Positions 4,264 through 31,375 of a stretch of DNA of 32,000 nt are shown one piece after another (position 1 is the stretch's first letter; the number at the start of each line of letters is the position of its first letter). Origin of the DNA: Candidatus Thorarchaeota archaeon (GTDB taxonomy: Archaea; Asgardarchaeota; Thorarchaeia; Thorarchaeales; Thorarchaeaceae); NCBI GenBank assembly GCA_008080745.1, contig SHMX01000001.1, positions 30,001 through 62,000 on the forward strand. Reading direction: 5' to 3'. Under the pieces are notes generated by a model that made no database searches, was not told the origin of the DNA, and was given only the letters and a program-made list of their open reading frames with translations. A program made the translations under genes and the position numbers.

Positions 4264-5361
4264 ATGTCTTATGACAAATGCGTTCGATGCGGTTCATGCG
4301 TGAAATTCTGCCCTATCTTTGACGCTATTGGAGAAGAACAATTCTCTCCTCGTGGAAAGACCTATCTCCTTCAGGTCATGGATCAGATTGATGAAGATGA
4401 AGAGCTAGGAAGAGAATTCAGAAGACTGCTCTTCCAATGTACAATGTGTGGTCGTTGTGCTGAAATTTGCTCTTCCGATGTGGACCTACTAAGAATTTGG
4501 CATGAGCAACGAGCAAAAGCATATGAAACAGCACCAGAAGAATTTGAATATATTGAAGCTCTTAAGAAATCGCTAGCCAACGTGAGGAATATATATGGCC
4601 TTCCCATGGATGATAGAGCAATATATTGGGTTGATGAGTTGGAGGTGGACTTCCCAGATATTGAAGATAGATTATATGAAGAGGGGAAGAACGCAGATGT
4701 AATGATATTTTTGGGATGCCTCATGTCATTTCGAGGGTCTCAAATCCCCGTACTCCATTCACTTATTGATGTGCTGGAACGAATGGATATTGACTACTTG
4801 ATTATGGGTGCAGAGGAGTTTTGCTGTGGGCATCCACTCGATTTAATCGGAGATGAGGAGGGAGCAAAAGAGCTGCAGAAGCATAATCGAGGCGTTATAG
4901 AAGCAGCTGAAGTAAAACAAGTTGTAACATGTTGCCCGGGTTGTCTGATGCAATTACGGAATCATCATCAATTGGATGCGGAGGTGTTACATCATACCCA
5001 GTTCTTTGACAGATTGTTAGAGGATATACCAAAATACAGCCAGAAAGAAGATTTTACATATCATGATCCATGTGAATTACATCGGCTCTGCGAAGTGAAA
5101 AAGGAACCTAGATCACTACTAAAGAAAATGGAAATAGAATTTAGAGAGATGGAGTTGAGTTGTTGTGGTGGGGGTGGCTTGCTCCGATTAACAGACCCAA
5201 ATCTTAGTGATAAGGTAATCCAATTGCGTGCTCAGAGGGAGAAACTGAATAGAAGTACGGTAATAACCTGTTGTCCGGCATGCCGAGAACAACTTCTTGG
5301 TACAGACTTGAAAACCGTAGATATCGTTGAATTACTCGACCAAGTGATGAGAGGGAGCTGA
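4264..5361 (+). CDS. (Fe-S)-binding oxidoreductase subunit, GlcF/HdrD-like (2x[4Fe-4S] plus two CCG domains)
   Basis: CVRCGSCVKFCP, CTMCGRCAEIC, FCCGHP, TCCPGC, YHDPC, SCCGGGG, TCCPAC. Confidence 0.9.
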   Translation: MSYDKCVRCGSCVKFCPIFDAIGEEQFSPRGKTYLLQVMDQIDEDEELGREFRRLLFQCTMCGRCAEICSSDVDLLRIWHEQRAKAYETAPEEFEYIEALKKSLANVRNIYGLPMDDRAIYWVDELEVDFPDIEDRLYEEGKNADVMIFLGCLMSFRGSQIPVLHSLIDVLERMDIDYLIMGAEEFCCGHPLDLIGDEEGAKELQKHNRGVIEAAEVKQVVTCCPGCLMQLRNHHQLDAEVLHHTQFFDRLLEDIPKYSQKEDFTYHDPCELHRLCEVKKEPRSLLKKMEIEFREMELSCCGGGGLLRLTDPNLSDKVIQLRAQREKLNRSTVITCCPACREQLLGTDLKTVDIVELLDQVMRGS

Positions 5362-5362
5362 A

Positions 5363-6706
5363 ATGAAACTTAGAGATATCGCCATCGGTGCTAATGCATC
5401 TATGTATTTTCGACTAAATTTTAAGAAGATTAAAGGAGTTTTCTACCCAACCAATGAAGATGAAGTAGTGCAGGCAATAGCAGCTGCACAGAAAATGGGT
5501 GTTAGTGTTACCCCTAAGGGGGGCGGTTCTGGACTTAGTGGAGCTTGTACGGGTGGAAACACTGAACGAGTTATGATTAGTAGTCTAAGAATGACAGACC
5601 TATTGAAAATATCCAAAGACACAGATCAACCGTATATTGATGTTCAACCAGGCGCGTCTCCAGATGAAATAAATGCAATACTGGAACCCATTGGTTTCAA
5701 GCTATGGGTAGCACCTAGTAGTAGAGATATAGCAACTGTAGGAGGTATTCTTAGTACGGATGGGGGCGGGAATGATACATGGGTCAATGGAACCATGAGA
5801 GACAACACAATTCACGCAAAAATGATTCTGTATGATGGAACCAAGATAATCGTTGACCAGGATGGCGTACAAAGTGATAACGATGAACTCGCGGCAAAAC
5901 TAAATTCCGTAGAGATGACTCTGCATGACGTTGCAGCCTCCCATGGCACCTTGGGGTTCATAACTGAACTCAGACTAGTCATCAAACCATTCCCTGATGA
6001 GAAATTGATTGGGGGAATTGTGAAATTCGATAATGCCAGCGAGCTAGGTATTGCACTAGACAAGATGATAGAGAGAAGAAGCAAAATTCGATATGGCGAA
6101 TCTATAGTGGCAGCCCATGATGACATTCGAGGTGGTTTATCAACACCACTTCTGATATTGGAATTCCCTGATTCTGAAATGGATGAAGTATTAGATATTG
6201 TTGATTTGGACGAATTGAATCCCTCTGAACTTGAAAAAATGAAAGATATCCGAATTAAATTGCCAAAACGAAATCCCGCAAAAGGAAAACAGATTGCACT
6301 CTTTGAAGGTTATGGGTTCCATGGAGACAATCTAATGACCATGCAGAGGGGAATCGACAGCATCGATAGTCTGTTACGTGACCATGGCTTGGAACCCTTT
6401 GCGAAATATGGACATGCTCCTAGTAAATGGTACTTGGGAGATAATACACCTGCATTTGGTCTAATCATGCATTCTCGAGAGATTAGACCCGATGATGCCT
6501 CTGGAAGAGATCTCTTTGATGCCGTCTTGGACATAGTCGAACTGACAGAGAAACTCGGGATAACTCCAAAACCCGAACATAAGTGGCCCTTTAGTGACAA
6601 AGAGAAACTCACACGAATGAACCAGCTTAGAGAGATTCTGAACAGCCACTTTAATGAATTCTTATTTGATTCGAATTGTGATGACGTGCTCAGTTCAATG
6701 GTCTAA
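5363..6706 (+). CDS. FAD-binding oxidoreductase, GlcD/D-2-hydroxyacid dehydrogenase family
   Basis: VTPKGGGSGLSG, VQPG, APSSRDIATVGGILST and GTLGFITE in the FAD domain. C-terminal GH...H...EH residues (YGHAP, IMHSRE, PEHK). Starts 1 nt after the Fe-S gene stop. Confidence 0.85.
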   Translation: MKLRDIAIGANASMYFRLNFKKIKGVFYPTNEDEVVQAIAAAQKMGVSVTPKGGGSGLSGACTGGNTERVMISSLRMTDLLKISKDTDQPYIDVQPGASPDEINAILEPIGFKLWVAPSSRDIATVGGILSTDGGGNDTWVNGTMRDNTIHAKMILYDGTKIIVDQDGVQSDNDELAAKLNSVEMTLHDVAASHGTLGFITELRLVIKPFPDEKLIGGIVKFDNASELGIALDKMIERRSKIRYGESIVAAHDDIRGGLSTPLLILEFPDSEMDEVLDIVDLDELNPSELEKMKDIRIKLPKRNPAKGKQIALFEGYGFHGDNLMTMQRGIDSIDSLLRDHGLEPFAKYGHAPSKWYLGDNTPAFGLIMHSREIRPDDASGRDLFDAVLDIVELTEKLGITPKPEHKWPFSDKEKLTRMNQLREILNSHFNEFLFDSNCDDVLSSMV

Positions 6707-6774
6707 CAATAATACTTTCGGCTTAGGGTCTCTAGGTGTTTATATATGCACATCAATACTAATTTTTGATAAGG

Positions 6775-7911
6775 ATGAGAAAGAAAATAGGTAGCCCCAG
6801 AGGGTTATTCGATCCTTACTATGTGCCAGACCTGTTATTGCATCGAGACCGTGAGATGCACAGTCTGACCGGAGTCTACAAAGATTCATACGAATCTGAG
6901 TATGGTGTCAATTGCTTAGTTCATGGAATCACAGGGGTAGGTATGACTGTTTTCTCCAGGTATTTTCTCACCAAGTTAGTTCCCCAACAGTTCGATGCTT
7001 TTACTGTCTATGTCGATGCCAGAAGTAAAGATGTGTTGGAGATAGTTTCAGAACTTAATGATAAAATCCATCAGGAAACAAAGAAACCGATTACTGTTGC
7101 ATTTGATCTCGATGTTCTATGGATGCAATTCAAGAGAACTGCCACCTCAGCTAGTAAAAAGACAATATTTGTTATTGACAATATTGACGAACGAAATGAA
7201 GAGGTCTATGCTAAACTTGCAAGACTATCCAAAGAGATTAAGGCGAGTACTATAGGGGTTCTTAACAGCCACGACTACAGATTGCTTACTAAGGCACCAG
7301 CAACACAAATGGCATATGATTTTGAGGTACCCCTAGACACCTATACTCAGGCTCAGCTATATGAAATTGTCCGAATGCGTGTTGAAGATACATTCCCAAT
7401 GTCACTCACAGATGAGATTGTGAGATACATAACTGACATAGTCTGTGAGTTTGATGCTTCCAAGCCAAAGACATCAATTGAAGCACTTAAAGCTCTATGG
7501 CCACTATCCTCTCAGGGACAAGAGATTGACTCAGAGGCAGTACGTGCTGCCACATCCAAAATCACAGTAGTTGGTAATGACCAGGACTATATGGACATTA
7601 TAGATACTATTGCCTTGAATGACTTTATGACTCTTTTAGTCCTAGAGGCCATTGCGGGTCATCTCACAAGTTATCCAACAGAGACCTATATAGATCGACA
7701 GACTGTAAATGACATAATTGCAGCAAAATGCGAAGAACTTAGTGTCAGATACGATCCTCACGATATAGAGAAAAGTCTCCAGACCTTGATCTTTCAAAGT
7801 GTTATTTTTGAGTCCGGATATTCAAGAAATCTATTGTACGTGTTGACGCCTCCCGAGATTCTTTACGACGCCTCTATGAACCTTAGAAGACAATTAGCAA
7901 GAAGAAAATGA
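6775..7911 (+). CDS. Orc1/Cdc6-family AAA+ protein with degenerate ATPase motifs
   Basis: N-terminal FDPYYVPDLLLHRDRE, Walker A region HGITGVGMT, Walker B region FVIDNID, TYTQAQLYEIVRMRVE, and a winged-helix-like C-terminus (AKCEEL...IEKSLQTLIFQSVI). Confidence 0.85.
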   Translation: MRKKIGSPRGLFDPYYVPDLLLHRDREMHSLTGVYKDSYESEYGVNCLVHGITGVGMTVFSRYFLTKLVPQQFDAFTVYVDARSKDVLEIVSELNDKIHQETKKPITVAFDLDVLWMQFKRTATSASKKTIFVIDNIDERNEEVYAKLARLSKEIKASTIGVLNSHDYRLLTKAPATQMAYDFEVPLDTYTQAQLYEIVRMRVEDTFPMSLTDEIVRYITDIVCEFDASKPKTSIEALKALWPLSSQGQEIDSEAVRAATSKITVVGNDQDYMDIIDTIALNDFMTLLVLEAIAGHLTSYPTETYIDRQTVNDIIAAKCEELSVRYDPHDIEKSLQTLIFQSVIFESGYSRNLLYVLTPPEILYDASMNLRRQLARRK

Positions 7912-8456: not shown

Positions 8457-8660
8457 CTATTGGGTAGATGCTTGTTTTATTGCTAATTGAAAACGTTCTA
8501 AATCATCAGCATCAAGTTCTGCACACACTGTACCTAAATATCCACAGTCAGTCGCCTTACAGCGATAATTTATTGGATTAGAAGCTGTCATAGTAGTACT
8601 TCTAACAATCTCGACCTGAGTGCTGCCGCATCTTGGGCATACTCTAATTTTCTCACTCAA
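8457..8660 (-). CDS. Small CPxCG-type zinc-ribbon protein (67 aa)
   Basis: CPRCGS...YRCKATDCGYLG; GGGAGG SD-like motif 7 nt upstream of the TTG start. Confidence 0.7.
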   Translation of the reverse strand: MSEKIRVCPRCGSTQVEIVRSTTMTASNPINYRCKATDCGYLGTVCAELDADDLERFQLAIKQASTQ

Positions 8661-8691: not shown

Positions 8692-8783
8692 TATCCATAC
8701 TATTAAGCATCTCGACAGGTCAATGATTTTCTGCGTTGGAATTGGTGGGGGTTATTTAGCCTAATAGAGAACAATGATATGAA

Positions 8784-9545
8784 ATGAAACCTTCCAATCC
8801 AAATCTAAGAGTAGGGTTCTCTACAGCAGATCAAATAACCCGTCAAATTGTAAGCTCGGGGACAAAAGAAATCGATATCCTCTTGGATGGGGGTCTGGAA
8901 CTCGGTTTCACTCACCTTTTCTTTGGACAACGTAATCTCCATGAAGACATCCTCAAGATGGCTGTGCATATCCAACTTCCCAAGAATCGTGGAGGTCTTG
9001 GCAGCCCAGTCATAATTATAGATAGCGCCAATATTCTAAGAGTAGACCAAATCTCTGATATTGCTATTGAATTGAAGTTAGAACCAGAAGATGTTATGGA
9101 CCGAATCTATGTCTCACGTGCCTTTAACGCTTCACAGACATATGATTTGGTAATGAATCAATTAGATAAATTCTTCAAACGAGTTCCTGCAAAGCTGCTC
9201 ATTGTTACAGGACTACCAGATTTGTATATCACAGAGGGACTAACAGGAGAGAAGCTTCAAGAAATCGGTCATATGGCAACAAGAATCATGACATTTACAC
9301 TAAGAAGGCAGCTTGCGACGGTCATAACAACACCTACTACAGAACAAGGTAAGAACACTCCAGCAGGCGGAAAAACATTGGCAAGTTCTGCACAAGTACA
9401 TGTAAGAGTCATTCATTCGAAAGCTTATGTAAAATATTGTCTTACTAAACATCCCCAACATCCCGAGAGAATAACCTCAAGAATGAAGGCAACAAAATAT
9501 AGTGCCACTCTTCCTCTCTCATATTTTCTGAGAGAGGAAGAGTAG
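8784..9545 (+). CDS. RadA/Rad51-family paralog lacking N-terminal HhH domain and Walker A/B
   Basis: GFSTA, SSGTKEIDILLDGGLE, QLPKNRGGL, IIDSAN, IYVSRAFN, KLLIV, PAGGKTLA align with the RadA core; GEFGSGKT and VDS are not present. Confidence 0.85.
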   Translation: MKPSNPNLRVGFSTADQITRQIVSSGTKEIDILLDGGLELGFTHLFFGQRNLHEDILKMAVHIQLPKNRGGLGSPVIIIDSANILRVDQISDIAIELKLEPEDVMDRIYVSRAFNASQTYDLVMNQLDKFFKRVPAKLLIVTGLPDLYITEGLTGEKLQEIGHMATRIMTFTLRRQLATVITTPTTEQGKNTPAGGKTLASSAQVHVRVIHSKAYVKYCLTKHPQHPERITSRMKATKYSATLPLSYFLREEE

Positions 9546-29344: not shown

Positions 29345-31375
29345 ATGAGAACAATAGGTGTAGATGTTGGTGGTACCTTTACAGATATCATTCTATTTGA
29401 TTCTATGAGTGGTAAAATAGCAGTTCATAAAATACCATCAACACCAAACTCTCAAGACATAGCAGTGGTAAGGGGTATAGAGGAAATTCTGCAAAGAGAG
29501 CAAATCGAACCAGAATCCATCGATAGTGTTGTACATGGAACGACCGTTGCAACTAATGCCATGTTGGAGAGAAAAGGTGCGAGAGTAGGTCTTGTAACAA
29601 CAAAAGGAATAGAAGATGTGTTAGAGATTGGCAGACAGAATAGATTTGATATTTATGATATCCATGCAAGCAGGCCCGAACCGCTCGTAAGAAGATCTGA
29701 TAGAATTGGTGTAGCTGAACGATTAGATTCTAAAGGTATTCCACTATTAGAGTTGACCGAAGAGGAGATTAAAGGAGCTATATCCAGAATTAAAGAATTG
29801 GATTTGCAATCTATCGCAATATCACTGTTATTTTCTTATCAAAACCCAAAACATGAGCTCCAGTTGCTAAGCAGAATTAAACAAGAAACCAATCTATACA
29901 CGGTAGCATCATCTGGTGTTTTACCCGAATTCCGAGAATATGAGAGAACATCTACAACAGTTCTAGAGGCCTATTTAGGCCCACTGGTAATATCCTACCT
30001 AGAAAAACTAGAAGACTCGCTGAGAACGCTCTGCCCCAAGGCTAAACTAACAGTCATGCAATCAAATGGCGGAACTATTCTATGTTCCGAAACTGAAGGT
30101 AGAACAATTGGTTTAGCGATATCAGGTCTTGCGGGAGGAGTAATTGGAGGATGGAATATTGGAAGAAATTCCGGATATACTAAATCCATAACTTTGGATA
30201 TGGGAGGAACTTCATGCGATATCAGTTCAGTAGTAGAAAAAATAATCGTAAGACCAGATAACGATGTGGAAGGACTTCCTATCCGTGTGCCAGCTGTTGA
30301 TGTAAAAACAATCGGAGCAGGTGGAGGAAGTATAGCTTGGATTGATGAAATCGGAGTATTGCATGTGGGTCCACAGAGCGCTGGAGCTGAACCGGGACCT
30401 GCAGCATATGGCAAAGGGGGAGAAAAAGCTACTGTTACTGACGCGAATCTATTACTTGGAAGGCTTAATCCACATAATTTTCTGGGTGGACGTGTTCCAT
30501 TAGATGTTGTATCTTCAAGAGATGCCATCAAAAGGATAGCAGAATCACTCTCCCTATCAATTGAAAGAGCAGCATTAGGAATCATCAAAATTTCTACAAC
30601 CAATATGGTACAAGCAATTCGAGAAGTGACAGTTGAACGAGGTCATGATCCTAGAACATTCACCCTCATACCGTTTGGAGGGGCAGGTCCAACACAGTCC
30701 TGCGAGATTGCGGAGGTACTAGGAATCAACCAGGTGCTAGTACCACCGTATCCAGGAATAACTTCAGCATATGGTCTGATCGTGGCCGATTTTCGTGTTG
30801 ATACCATGAAGTCAGTAATGCTAACTGGGAAAAAAGAGGACGAAAAAATAATACAGGCTGTATTTGTAGAATTGAAGCAGAAAACCATTACGAGGTTGGT
30901 AAAACAGGGAGTAGATGAAAACTCGGTCAGGTTTGAGTTGGGTATTGATATGCGATATGCAGGTCAGTCTCATGAACTTGCTGTAGCTGTTTCTGATAAC
31001 TCAACTGATTACCTCACATCATCGAGAGAATTATTTGAGAGAATACACGAACAGGAGTTTGGATATAGATTACCTGATAGAGAGATAGAATGGGTTACTG
31101 TGAGAGTGGTAGGTGTTGCGCCTCAACTGGGGATTTCAAAAACAGAAATATCTCAAAGAAAAATAAAACAAAATATCCATAAACGAACTGTCATCATGCC
31201 GGATGGAAAGGAATATTCTACCAGAATATTTCAACGAGAGGGTCTCCAAGAGGGAGAAGTAATAGAGGGGCCAGCAATTGTGGAACAGTTAGACACGACA
31301 ATTGTTATTCCACCAAGTTGGAGAGCCATCCAACAAAAAAATGGTACCATGATCATCAGGAGGTTATCCACTTGA
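29345..31375 (+). CDS. Hydantoinase/5-oxoprolinase subunit A (HyuA/OplA family)
   Basis: IGVDVGGTFTD, HGTTVATNA, EYERTSTT, DMGGTSCDIS, IGAGGGSIA, GPQSAGAEPGPAAYGKGG, DMRYAGQSHEL. ATG 29345 preferred. Confidence 0.93.
   Translation: MRTIGVDVGGTFTDIILFDSMSGKIAVHKIPSTPNSQDIAVVRGIEEILQREQIEPESIDSVVHGTTVATNAMLERKGARVGLVTTKGIEDVLEIGRQNRFDIYDIHASRPEPLVRRSDRIGVAERLDSKGIPLLELTEEEIKGAISRIKELDLQSIAISLLFSYQNPKHELQLLSRIKQETNLYTVASSGVLPEFREYERTSTTVLEAYLGPLVISYLEKLEDSLRTLCPKAKLTVMQSNGGTILCSETEGRTIGLAISGLAGGVIGGWNIGRNSGYTKSITLDMGGTSCDISSVVEKIIVRPDNDVEGLPIRVPAVDVKTIGAGGGSIAWIDEIGVLHVGPQSAGAEPGPAAYGKGGEKATVTDANLLLGRLNPHNFLGGRVPLDVVSSRDAIKRIAESLSLSIERAALGIIKISTTNMVQAIREVTVERGHDPRTFTLIPFGGAGPTQSCEIAEVLGINQVLVPPYPGITSAYGLIVADFRVDTMKSVMLTGKKEDEKIIQAVFVELKQKTITRLVKQGVDENSVRFELGIDMRYAGQSHELAVAVSDNSTDYLTSSRELFERIHEQEFGYRLPDREIEWVTVRVVGVAPQLGISKTEISQRKIKQNIHKRTVIMPDGKEYSTRIFQREGLQEGEVIEGPAIVEQLDTTIVIPPSWRAIQQKNGTMIIRRLST

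Follow-up and report, generated by a model that had tools for sequence, protein, structure and literature searches.

A Thorarchaeal iRadA ortholog unlinked from its operon and its predicted role as an accessory subunit of the polymerase PolB2

The stretch of DNA analyzed here (32,000 nucleotides, positions 30,001 to 62,000 of contig SHMX01000001.1 from Candidatus Thorarchaeota archaeon, assembly GCA_008080745.1; hereafter the window) contains at positions 8784-9545 on the forward strand a gene for a 253-amino-acid member of the Rad51 family whose ATPase motifs have been lost (P0001; hereafter the target). Open reading frame, Pfam and PDB matches, a phylogenetic tree and reciprocal best hits identify it, at the level of sequence, as the Thorarchaeal ortholog of iRadA, the inactivated RadA that accompanies the polymerase PolB2 in other genomes. 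Its product is probably an ATPase-dead, RadA-fold accessory subunit of a PolB2 (Dpo2-type) translesion or 'extender' polymerase complex.

Inactivated RadA, PolB2 and the protein PPB2 (arCOG07300) have been described as one module (PMC4104785), which has been modelled as a heteropentameric "mutasome" consisting of PolB2, iRadA and a PPB2 trimer (PMC11791011). In this model, PolB2 inserts into iRadA a beta-alpha motif that mimics the RadA oligomerisation motif and is located just before a conserved D(K/R), while PPB2 adds an MGRT arm at its N-terminus, and a clamp-binding motif is frequent at the C-terminus of iRadA (PMC11791011).

Orthology to the operon-encoded iRadAs

The target and the PolB2 of its genome were used as queries against 201 Asgard genomes. 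The best matches of the target outside its own family are proteins of 250-290 amino acids with 28-35% identity, which score above canonical RadA and whose genes adjoin PolB2, for example G053:C8 3245-3958 beside PolB2 at 4281-6536. The same adjacency was found in G012, G023, G147, G040, G019, G183 and dozens of other genomes, and the gene order in twelve fetched loci is iRadA-PPB2-PolB2. When the iRadAs of these twelve operons were compared by tblastn with the genome of the target (G000), the target locus was the top match for ten of them (about 1e-14 to 1e-33), while RadA or RadA2 of the same genome were matched at just 1e-4 to 1e-13. The other two (L061 and L062) gave no tblastn match at the target locus, but matched the target in blastp at ~1e-20 to 1e-21.

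Several derived traits that are absent in RadA are common to the target and the operon iRadAs, namely a six-residue deletion in loop L2, a short loop L1, V(S/T)G(L/I) at the position of Walker B, the motif L.KHP..P and a terminal peptide resembling a PCNA-interacting peptide (PIP). This terminal peptide reads TLDxWF or TLDAYF in operon iRadAs and PLSYFL in the target, and the positions are homologous. In a maximum-likelihood (ML) tree (LG+C20, 45 sequences, no eukaryotic sequences), the target family and the operon iRadAs form one clade (99/97) with a long stem, apart from all RadAs, and the target does not group with RadB. Because reciprocal best hits, shared derived characters and the tree agree, we regard the target as the Thorarchaeal iRadA. 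A previous reading of the DNA from its letters alone (the sequence-only reading) had interpreted the gene as a mediator of RadA filaments and had suggested a phylogeny as a check; the tree places it in an already described family with another predicted role.

The genome (3.16 Mb, 98% complete) encodes five Rad51-family proteins. The true RadA (344 amino acids) has an HhH domain, the P-loop GSFRSGKT and the motif GFETAD, and RadB is encoded by a separate gene with an intact P-loop (GKAAAGKT). RadA2 (354 amino acids; G000:C4:141.1-142.1 kb, L002 1273-2337) is likewise full-length and combines an HhH domain with an intact P-loop (GPSRGGKT). The last member, here called the L005 paralog, is a protein of 239 amino acids with a degenerate Walker A motif, lacking both FxxA and an N-terminal domain; its type was found only in the family of the target (37 of 43 genomes) and never adjoins PolB2. 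As a candidate for the iRadA of this genome the L005 paralog was ruled out, since only one of the twelve operon iRadAs (L064) matches it, at 2e-6 and far more weakly than it matches the target.

Two observations on these paralogs are added here. RadA2 carries FKSG where FxxA is expected, a sequence similar to FKTG, the docking motif in the PolB2 of other Asgards, and has an acidic C-terminal extension. The L005 paralog is the second gene of a tight three-gene string (G000:C4:152.8-155.5 kb; L005 450-3148, L014 4791-7489), between a 331-amino-acid hydrophobic protein and an XPG/FEN1-like nuclease (Pfam XPG_I, 3e-17), and the string is kept in six of six family genomes checked.

A degenerate RadA core

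The open frame of the target comprises just 255 amino acids and thus leaves no room for an upstream N-terminal (HhH) domain. Pfam Rad51 matches residues 23-219 at 9e-17, and the best solved relative is the core of Pyrococcus furiosus (Pfu) RadA (1pzn; 1.8e-18, about 30% identity). All NCBIfam models of RadA, Rad51 and Dmc1 are matched, every one with a score far under its cut-off. The two RadA models gave 74 against a cut-off of 259 and 66 against 361, which puts the protein outside the TIGR02236 / PRK04301 class, and the RadB model TIGR02237 gave 36 against 172. With these scores and the lost motifs, membership of the target in canonical RadA or RadB was ruled out.

The motifs of the RadA core are retained to different degrees. 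On the N-terminal arm, GFSTAD (residues 11-16; 8814-8831, forward strand as for all motifs of the target) aligns with GFETAD of the RadA of the same genome and represents the RadA/Rad51-type FxxA motif; in the alignment to human RAD51, which begins with residue 10 on RAD51 residue 84, F12 falls on F86. The signature QLPKNRGGL (residues 64-72; 8973-8999), which follows helix 1, aligns with QLPPEEGGL of Pfu RadA, with QRPSDQGGL, and also with RadA and RadA2 of this genome. Walker A is reduced to FFGQRNLHED (residues 46-55; 8919-8948): the alignments with the RadA of Pfu and that of the same genome show GKT replaced by LHE and two residues deleted, the Pfu P-loop FGEFGSGKTQ falling on FFGQRN--LHED. 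At Walker B, LLIVTG (residues 138-143; 9195-9212) aligns with LLIVDS, and the catalytic Asp is replaced. Compared with RadA, L1 is ~4 and L2 six residues shorter. The C-terminal peptide TLPLSYFL (residues 242-249; 9507-9530), followed by an acidic end, is a candidate PCNA-binding motif on the basis of its conservation and position. The sequence-only reading had named the FxxA and QLPxxxGGL motifs, the eroded P-loop, the change of VDS to VTG, the shortened loops and the missing HhH domain, and all of these are borne out by the alignments.

The AlphaFold2 (AF2) model of the target has an overall pLDDT of 87, with values above 90 for residues 21-235. Both the N-terminal arm with FxxA and the C-terminal tail are flexible in the model; pLDDT is below 50 for residues 1-14, and the tail forms a short helix of low pLDDT. 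A Foldseek search with the model found the RAD51/RadA core at a TM of about 0.8. Judged from these alignments, the target is a RadA core unable to bind ATP canonically and with truncated DNA-binding loops.

Conservation in the Thorarchaeal family

More than 160 homologs with 48-75% identity were found, nearly all of them in metagenome-assembled genomes of Thorarchaeota. Among the Asgard genomes searched, orthologs above 43% identity occur in about 38 of the 43 genomes of the target's family and in no other family. FxxA, whose conservation in orthologs the sequence-only reading had made a point of its proposal, is present in 107 of 116 orthologs; the remaining nine are gene calls that are short at the N-terminus, and the one examined (P0096) proved to have a mis-called start, with ..GFHTADEF.. 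in the upstream frame. The Walker A replacement, HLFYG-D/Q-R-x-LH-D/E-D, is conserved across the family, as is VTG, and G143 of the V(S/T)G(L/I) segment is invariant. At the C-terminus, TLPLS[YH]FL with acidic residues was found in at least 110 of the 116 orthologs. Because FxxA, the Walker A replacement, VTG and the tail are all conserved, the gene is under purifying selection and is no relic.

In several family genomes, mostly of genus g9, two diverged iRadA copies with 43-55% identity to the target are present (G137, G200, G108, G093, G103, G087, G120, G188, G134, G179 and G046). The sampled diverged copies P0106, P0113 and P0109 still have F.TAD and, at the C-terminus, the PIP-like tail (PFQTAD / TLPLDYFF type).

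PPB2 and PolB2 elsewhere in the genome

The sequence-only reading had dropped a connection to PolB2 for lack of a polB2 gene in the window. However, a PPB2-PolB2 pair is located on the same contig at G000:C1:267.7-270.2 kb, with 230 kb between it and the target at C1:38.8 kb. The polymerase is a family-B enzyme of 757 amino acids whose motif C, HGIVDS, has lost the first Asp of DxD as in PolB2. It is overlapped and preceded by an ORF for a helical protein of 91 amino acids. This protein begins with MGRTVRTFR, which corresponds to the published 'MGRT' arm including R3 and R9, and its matches to the PPB2s of the operons range from 1e-12 to 1e-19. PPB2 lies immediately upstream of PolB2 in 29 of 30 family loci, and no RadA-like gene adjoins the pair in the target's genome. 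The PolB2 ortholog of one family genome (G143:C104:13666-15924) contains a single in-frame TAG, which may reflect a sequencing error, a pseudogene or read-through.

The cognate docking motif before D(K/R) is present in the PolB2 of this genome (PEYLKSASEIANIDRGG). The segment PE[F/Y]LK[S/T]..[E/D]L..IDRGG is conserved in 30 of 30 Thorarchaeal PolB2s, the aromatic residue being Y352 in this genome, which argues that the receptor of PolB2 persists. The genome has one PCNA gene. While f9 PolB2s end in QxxLxx[F/Y], no conserved PIP was found at the C-termini of Thorarchaeal PolB2s. The tail TLPLSYFL of the target fits the clamp pattern x-x-x-L-x-x-F-L. Since this tail is near-universal and PolB2 lacks a conserved PIP, a tether of the complex to PCNA could here be provided by iRadA alone.

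The complex of full-length PolB2 with residues 8-245 of the target was predicted with alignments for both partners and with three controls. An ipSAE of 0.42 was obtained (0.38-0.46 in the individual runs), with 0.00 for the best control; at least 66% of contacts recur between runs, and the pLDDT of the partner is at least 79. In a calibration, the mark was reached by 58 of 80 solved complexes and by 2 of 110 mismatched pairs, and the range at 0.60 or under holds seven of those 80 solved complexes together with both passing mismatches. The result is thus a pass in the weak band, and this modelled interface carries weight solely through the prior likelihood of the pairing.

The FxxA arm and alternative roles

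GFxTAD of the Thorarchaeal iRadA has the pattern of the RadA of its lineage (GFETAD). In family f9, iRadAs retain just SGFK.. of the GFKSAD found in their RadA, and the iRadAs of f13 and f21 have lost the motif. When 1.84 billion representatives were searched exhaustively with a profile, 41 Walker-less relatives had complete N-termini, and just 11 of them have any form of FxxA; among these proteins a clean F.TAD marks the Thorarchaeal type, and many others start with remnants such as M[IQ]TA[EQ]DYY.

Such an arm could make the target a regulator of RadA filaments, in which the protein acts on its own after leaving the PolB2 operon, and GFxTAD docks into the acceptor pocket of the terminal RadA protomer and caps, nucleates or blocks filaments, as BRC repeats or Rad51-paralog caps do. 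The essentially universal GFxTAD in the family, its full match to GFETAD of the lineage's RadA, the flexibility of the arm and the separation of the gene from PolB2 are consistent with this role, as is the fact that operon-linked iRadAs have just GF(K) or no motif. However, the PolB2 docking motif, the PPB2-PolB2 pair and the PIP-like tail are all maintained, which would be unexpected had the PolB2 role been abandoned, and the target is orthologous to a family for which a different role is predicted. Moreover, FxxA remnants (M.TA.DYY, SGFK.Y) occur in operon-linked iRadAs, so that the arm may act inside the mutasome. We therefore consider a role as filament regulator unlikely. Of the corresponding proposal in the sequence-only reading, the nucleotide-independent RadA paralog with a conserved FxxA peptide stands, while the idea of a new cap, loader or inhibitor of RadA filaments is not supported, given the placement among iRadAs.

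Alternatively, the arm might dock the L005-type paralog, RadA2 or a second iRadA copy to form a paralog heteromer. The L005 type lacks an FxxA motif, is coupled to the XPG/FEN1-like nuclease and occurs only in the family (37/43 genomes) in which iRadA has the canonical FxxA; several genomes have two iRadA copies, and in the tree the L005 type stands next to the iRadA clade (96/83), a position that may reflect long-branch attraction. Yet this case is circumstantial, the genes are unlinked, and co-restriction to one family amounts to a single evolutionary event, so we give such a heteromer very little credence. That the gene is a decaying, functionless RadA relic, as the loss of its ATPase motifs and DNA-binding loops might suggest, is contradicted by the more than 160 intact homologs, the invariant core residues, the conserved replacement motifs and terminal peptides and the confident fold of the AF2 model, and can practically be dismissed.

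Promoter regions and gene neighborhood

A B-recognition element (BRE)/TATA-like promoter element, GGGGGTTATTTAG, is located at 8747-8759 on the forward strand, ~25-37 nucleotides upstream of the ATG of the target. By eye, an element of the type GGGGGT.GTTAT(T/A)A is found at equal distance in most of twelve ortholog upstream regions. Judged by the distance to this predicted promoter, the transcript would be short-leader or leaderless. The hexamer ATTTTC at 8725-8730 (forward strand) fits the damage-response sequence ANTTTC of Sulfolobus, a match that is suggestive only. In Sulfolobus, dpo2 is induced via Orc1-2 binding to ANTTTC, and the core of the element is AGTTTCRG (PMC6061795). ANTTTC was found in 5 of the 12 promoters of target orthologs, where 1.0 would be expected (P about 0.003 in a shuffling test).

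At PPB2, a conserved non-coding element ACTTTCGG(N8-11)GTCCCC is located 130-157 nucleotides upstream of the gene in most family genomes, and ANTTTC is present in 27 of 29 loci (G000:C1:267.5-267.7 kb, corresponding to L013 about 5570-5600; orthologous loci L027-L056). An extended form, AGTTTCGG, is confined to one genus. In sequence, the PPB2 element is similar to the core of the Sulfolobus Orc1-2 damage-response element. The intergenic region that holds it also serves a divergent Ras-family GTPase gene, to which the element could belong. A comparison of the two promoters found ACTTTCGG strong at PPB2, while ANTTTC at the target is modest and non-positional.

The Ras-family GTPase gene is directly upstream of PPB2-PolB2 and divergent from the pair (L013 4875-5441, reverse strand), and a Ras-family GTPase gene also lies directly upstream of iRadA in an f9 genome (L065 2893-3438, reverse strand). 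Its use as a marker of the ancestral locus was rejected, as the 40% identity between the two is insufficient for orthology.

Two genes upstream of the target, the window contains a divergent Orc1/Cdc6-like gene (6766-7911, forward strand; TIGR02928 score 68 against a cut-off of 181). Enrichment of orc1/cdc6 in PolB2 neighborhoods has been reported, but the present gene is not found with the operons in the other Asgard loci examined. A gene for a 67-amino-acid, four-Cys Zn-ribbon protein (8457-8660, reverse strand) is divergent from the target across a 123-nucleotide intergenic region; its product has only weak matches to Lar and IS1595 Zn-ribbons. The Zn-ribbon/target adjacency is kept in three ortholog loci from public contigs (L006-L008), and the start and Shine-Dalgarno signature of the Zn-ribbon gene was found upstream of the target in most of twelve family loci. 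The dead Orc1/Cdc6, GcvH and Zn-ribbon genes are syntenic with the target within the family, but this was rejected as evidence of function, because the whole region is syntenic and none of these genes accompanies the operons of other Asgards.

Discussion

Our results suggest that the target would serve as a passive scaffold of a PolB2 complex. Its RadA-type acceptor pocket would receive the aromatic beta-alpha motif of PolB2 (PE[F/Y]LK[S/T]...IDRGG, Y352), and the flexible TLPLSYFL tail would tether the complex, which is probably damage-induced, to PCNA. The iRadA gene would have left the operon in this family while its product still works with PolB2. The N-terminal GFxTAD arm would then be a free docking peptide, to which the published model assigns no receptor.

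Several points weigh against an accessory role in a PolB2 complex. The target is unlinked from PPB2-PolB2 in every family genome checked, being hundreds of kb away or on another contig, and therefore the argument for a complex from genomic linkage is not applicable to it. PolB2 is present and no target ortholog was found in G016 (95% complete) and G197 (99%), while a target ortholog is present and no PolB2 was found in G116 (93%). The score of the PolB2 complex prediction falls in the weak band, and co-regulation is suggestive only, because the enriched ANTTTC hexamers have no fixed position and come from related genomes. To our knowledge, no iRadA has been characterized biochemically. The published mutasome model leaves the retention of a complete, RadA-grade FxxA in Thorarchaeota unexplained, and the mutasome is itself an in silico model (PMC11791011).

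The linkage fades stepwise in Asgards. iRadA and PolB2 are contiguous in f13, f21 and part of f9, are separated by 1-10 kb with inserted genes in most of f9, and are fully unlinked in the family of the target.

Like the iRadA of the mutasome (arCOG04294/07763/08101; PMC4104785, PMC11791011), the target is a RadA core without an N-terminal domain that has lost its ATPase residues and ends in a C-terminal clamp-type motif. It has the clade and the indels in common with the operon Asgard iRadAs, and the partners PolB2, with its docking motif, and PPB2, with its MGRT arm, are also present in its genome. Unlike operon iRadA, the target lies 230 kb from PolB2, has a more RadA-like sequence, carries a complete GFxTAD and bears the sole conserved PIP-like motif of the three Thorarchaeal proteins. 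By its sequence characters it is thus an unusual iRadA variant, which is unlinked, complete in FxxA and the sole PIP carrier. The term 'Thorarchae' was not found in the supplements of PMC11791011, of which two of the three files were available in part.

The fold, FxxA and QLPxxxGGL are common to the target and canonical RadA or Rad51/Dmc1. Unlike these proteins, the target has no HhH domain, Walker A or Walker B, its L1 and L2 loops are truncated, and a separate true RadA is encoded in the genome. RadB is likewise a short single-domain RadA paralog without an N-terminal domain, but has kept Walker A. Rad51-paralog assemblies and BRC repeats (XRCC3-RAD51C-RAD51D-XRCC2 caps, PDB 9svx, 9q29) engage Rad51 via the interface between FxxA and its pocket. 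The best structural matches of the target model are RAD51 chains from such filament entries, and a contact between the target and RadA is hypothetical. In the Escherichia coli Pol V mutasome (UmuD'2C-RecA-ATP), a translesion polymerase binds a RecA-family protomer via a mimic of the oligomerisation motif (PMC11791011). While Pol V uses active RecA from the filament, the PolB2 system combines a dedicated dead paralog with a B-family polymerase.

We also consider it possible, though doubtful, that the target acts as a bridge, with its pocket holding PolB2, its tail holding PCNA and GFxTAD docking the free acceptor pocket at the end of a RadA filament. If so, recombination intermediates such as D-loops and stalled forks would receive a translesion or extender polymerase. 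Such a bridge would parallel, in the closest archaeal relatives of eukaryotes, both the activation of Pol V at the RecA filament tip and the Rad51-paralog caps.

An Asgard RadA paralog that has a dead ATPase and looks like an "orphan" is here probably the known accessory subunit of PolB2 in a new location and no new analogue of Rad51 mediators. Operon-based surveys of PolB2 mutasomes can accordingly miss lineages with unlinked iRadA, here a family of at least 43 genomes. The conserved RadA-type motif on the predicted holder of PolB2 and PCNA suggests that recombination filaments and damage-tolerant DNA synthesis may be physically connected in archaeal relatives of eukaryotes.

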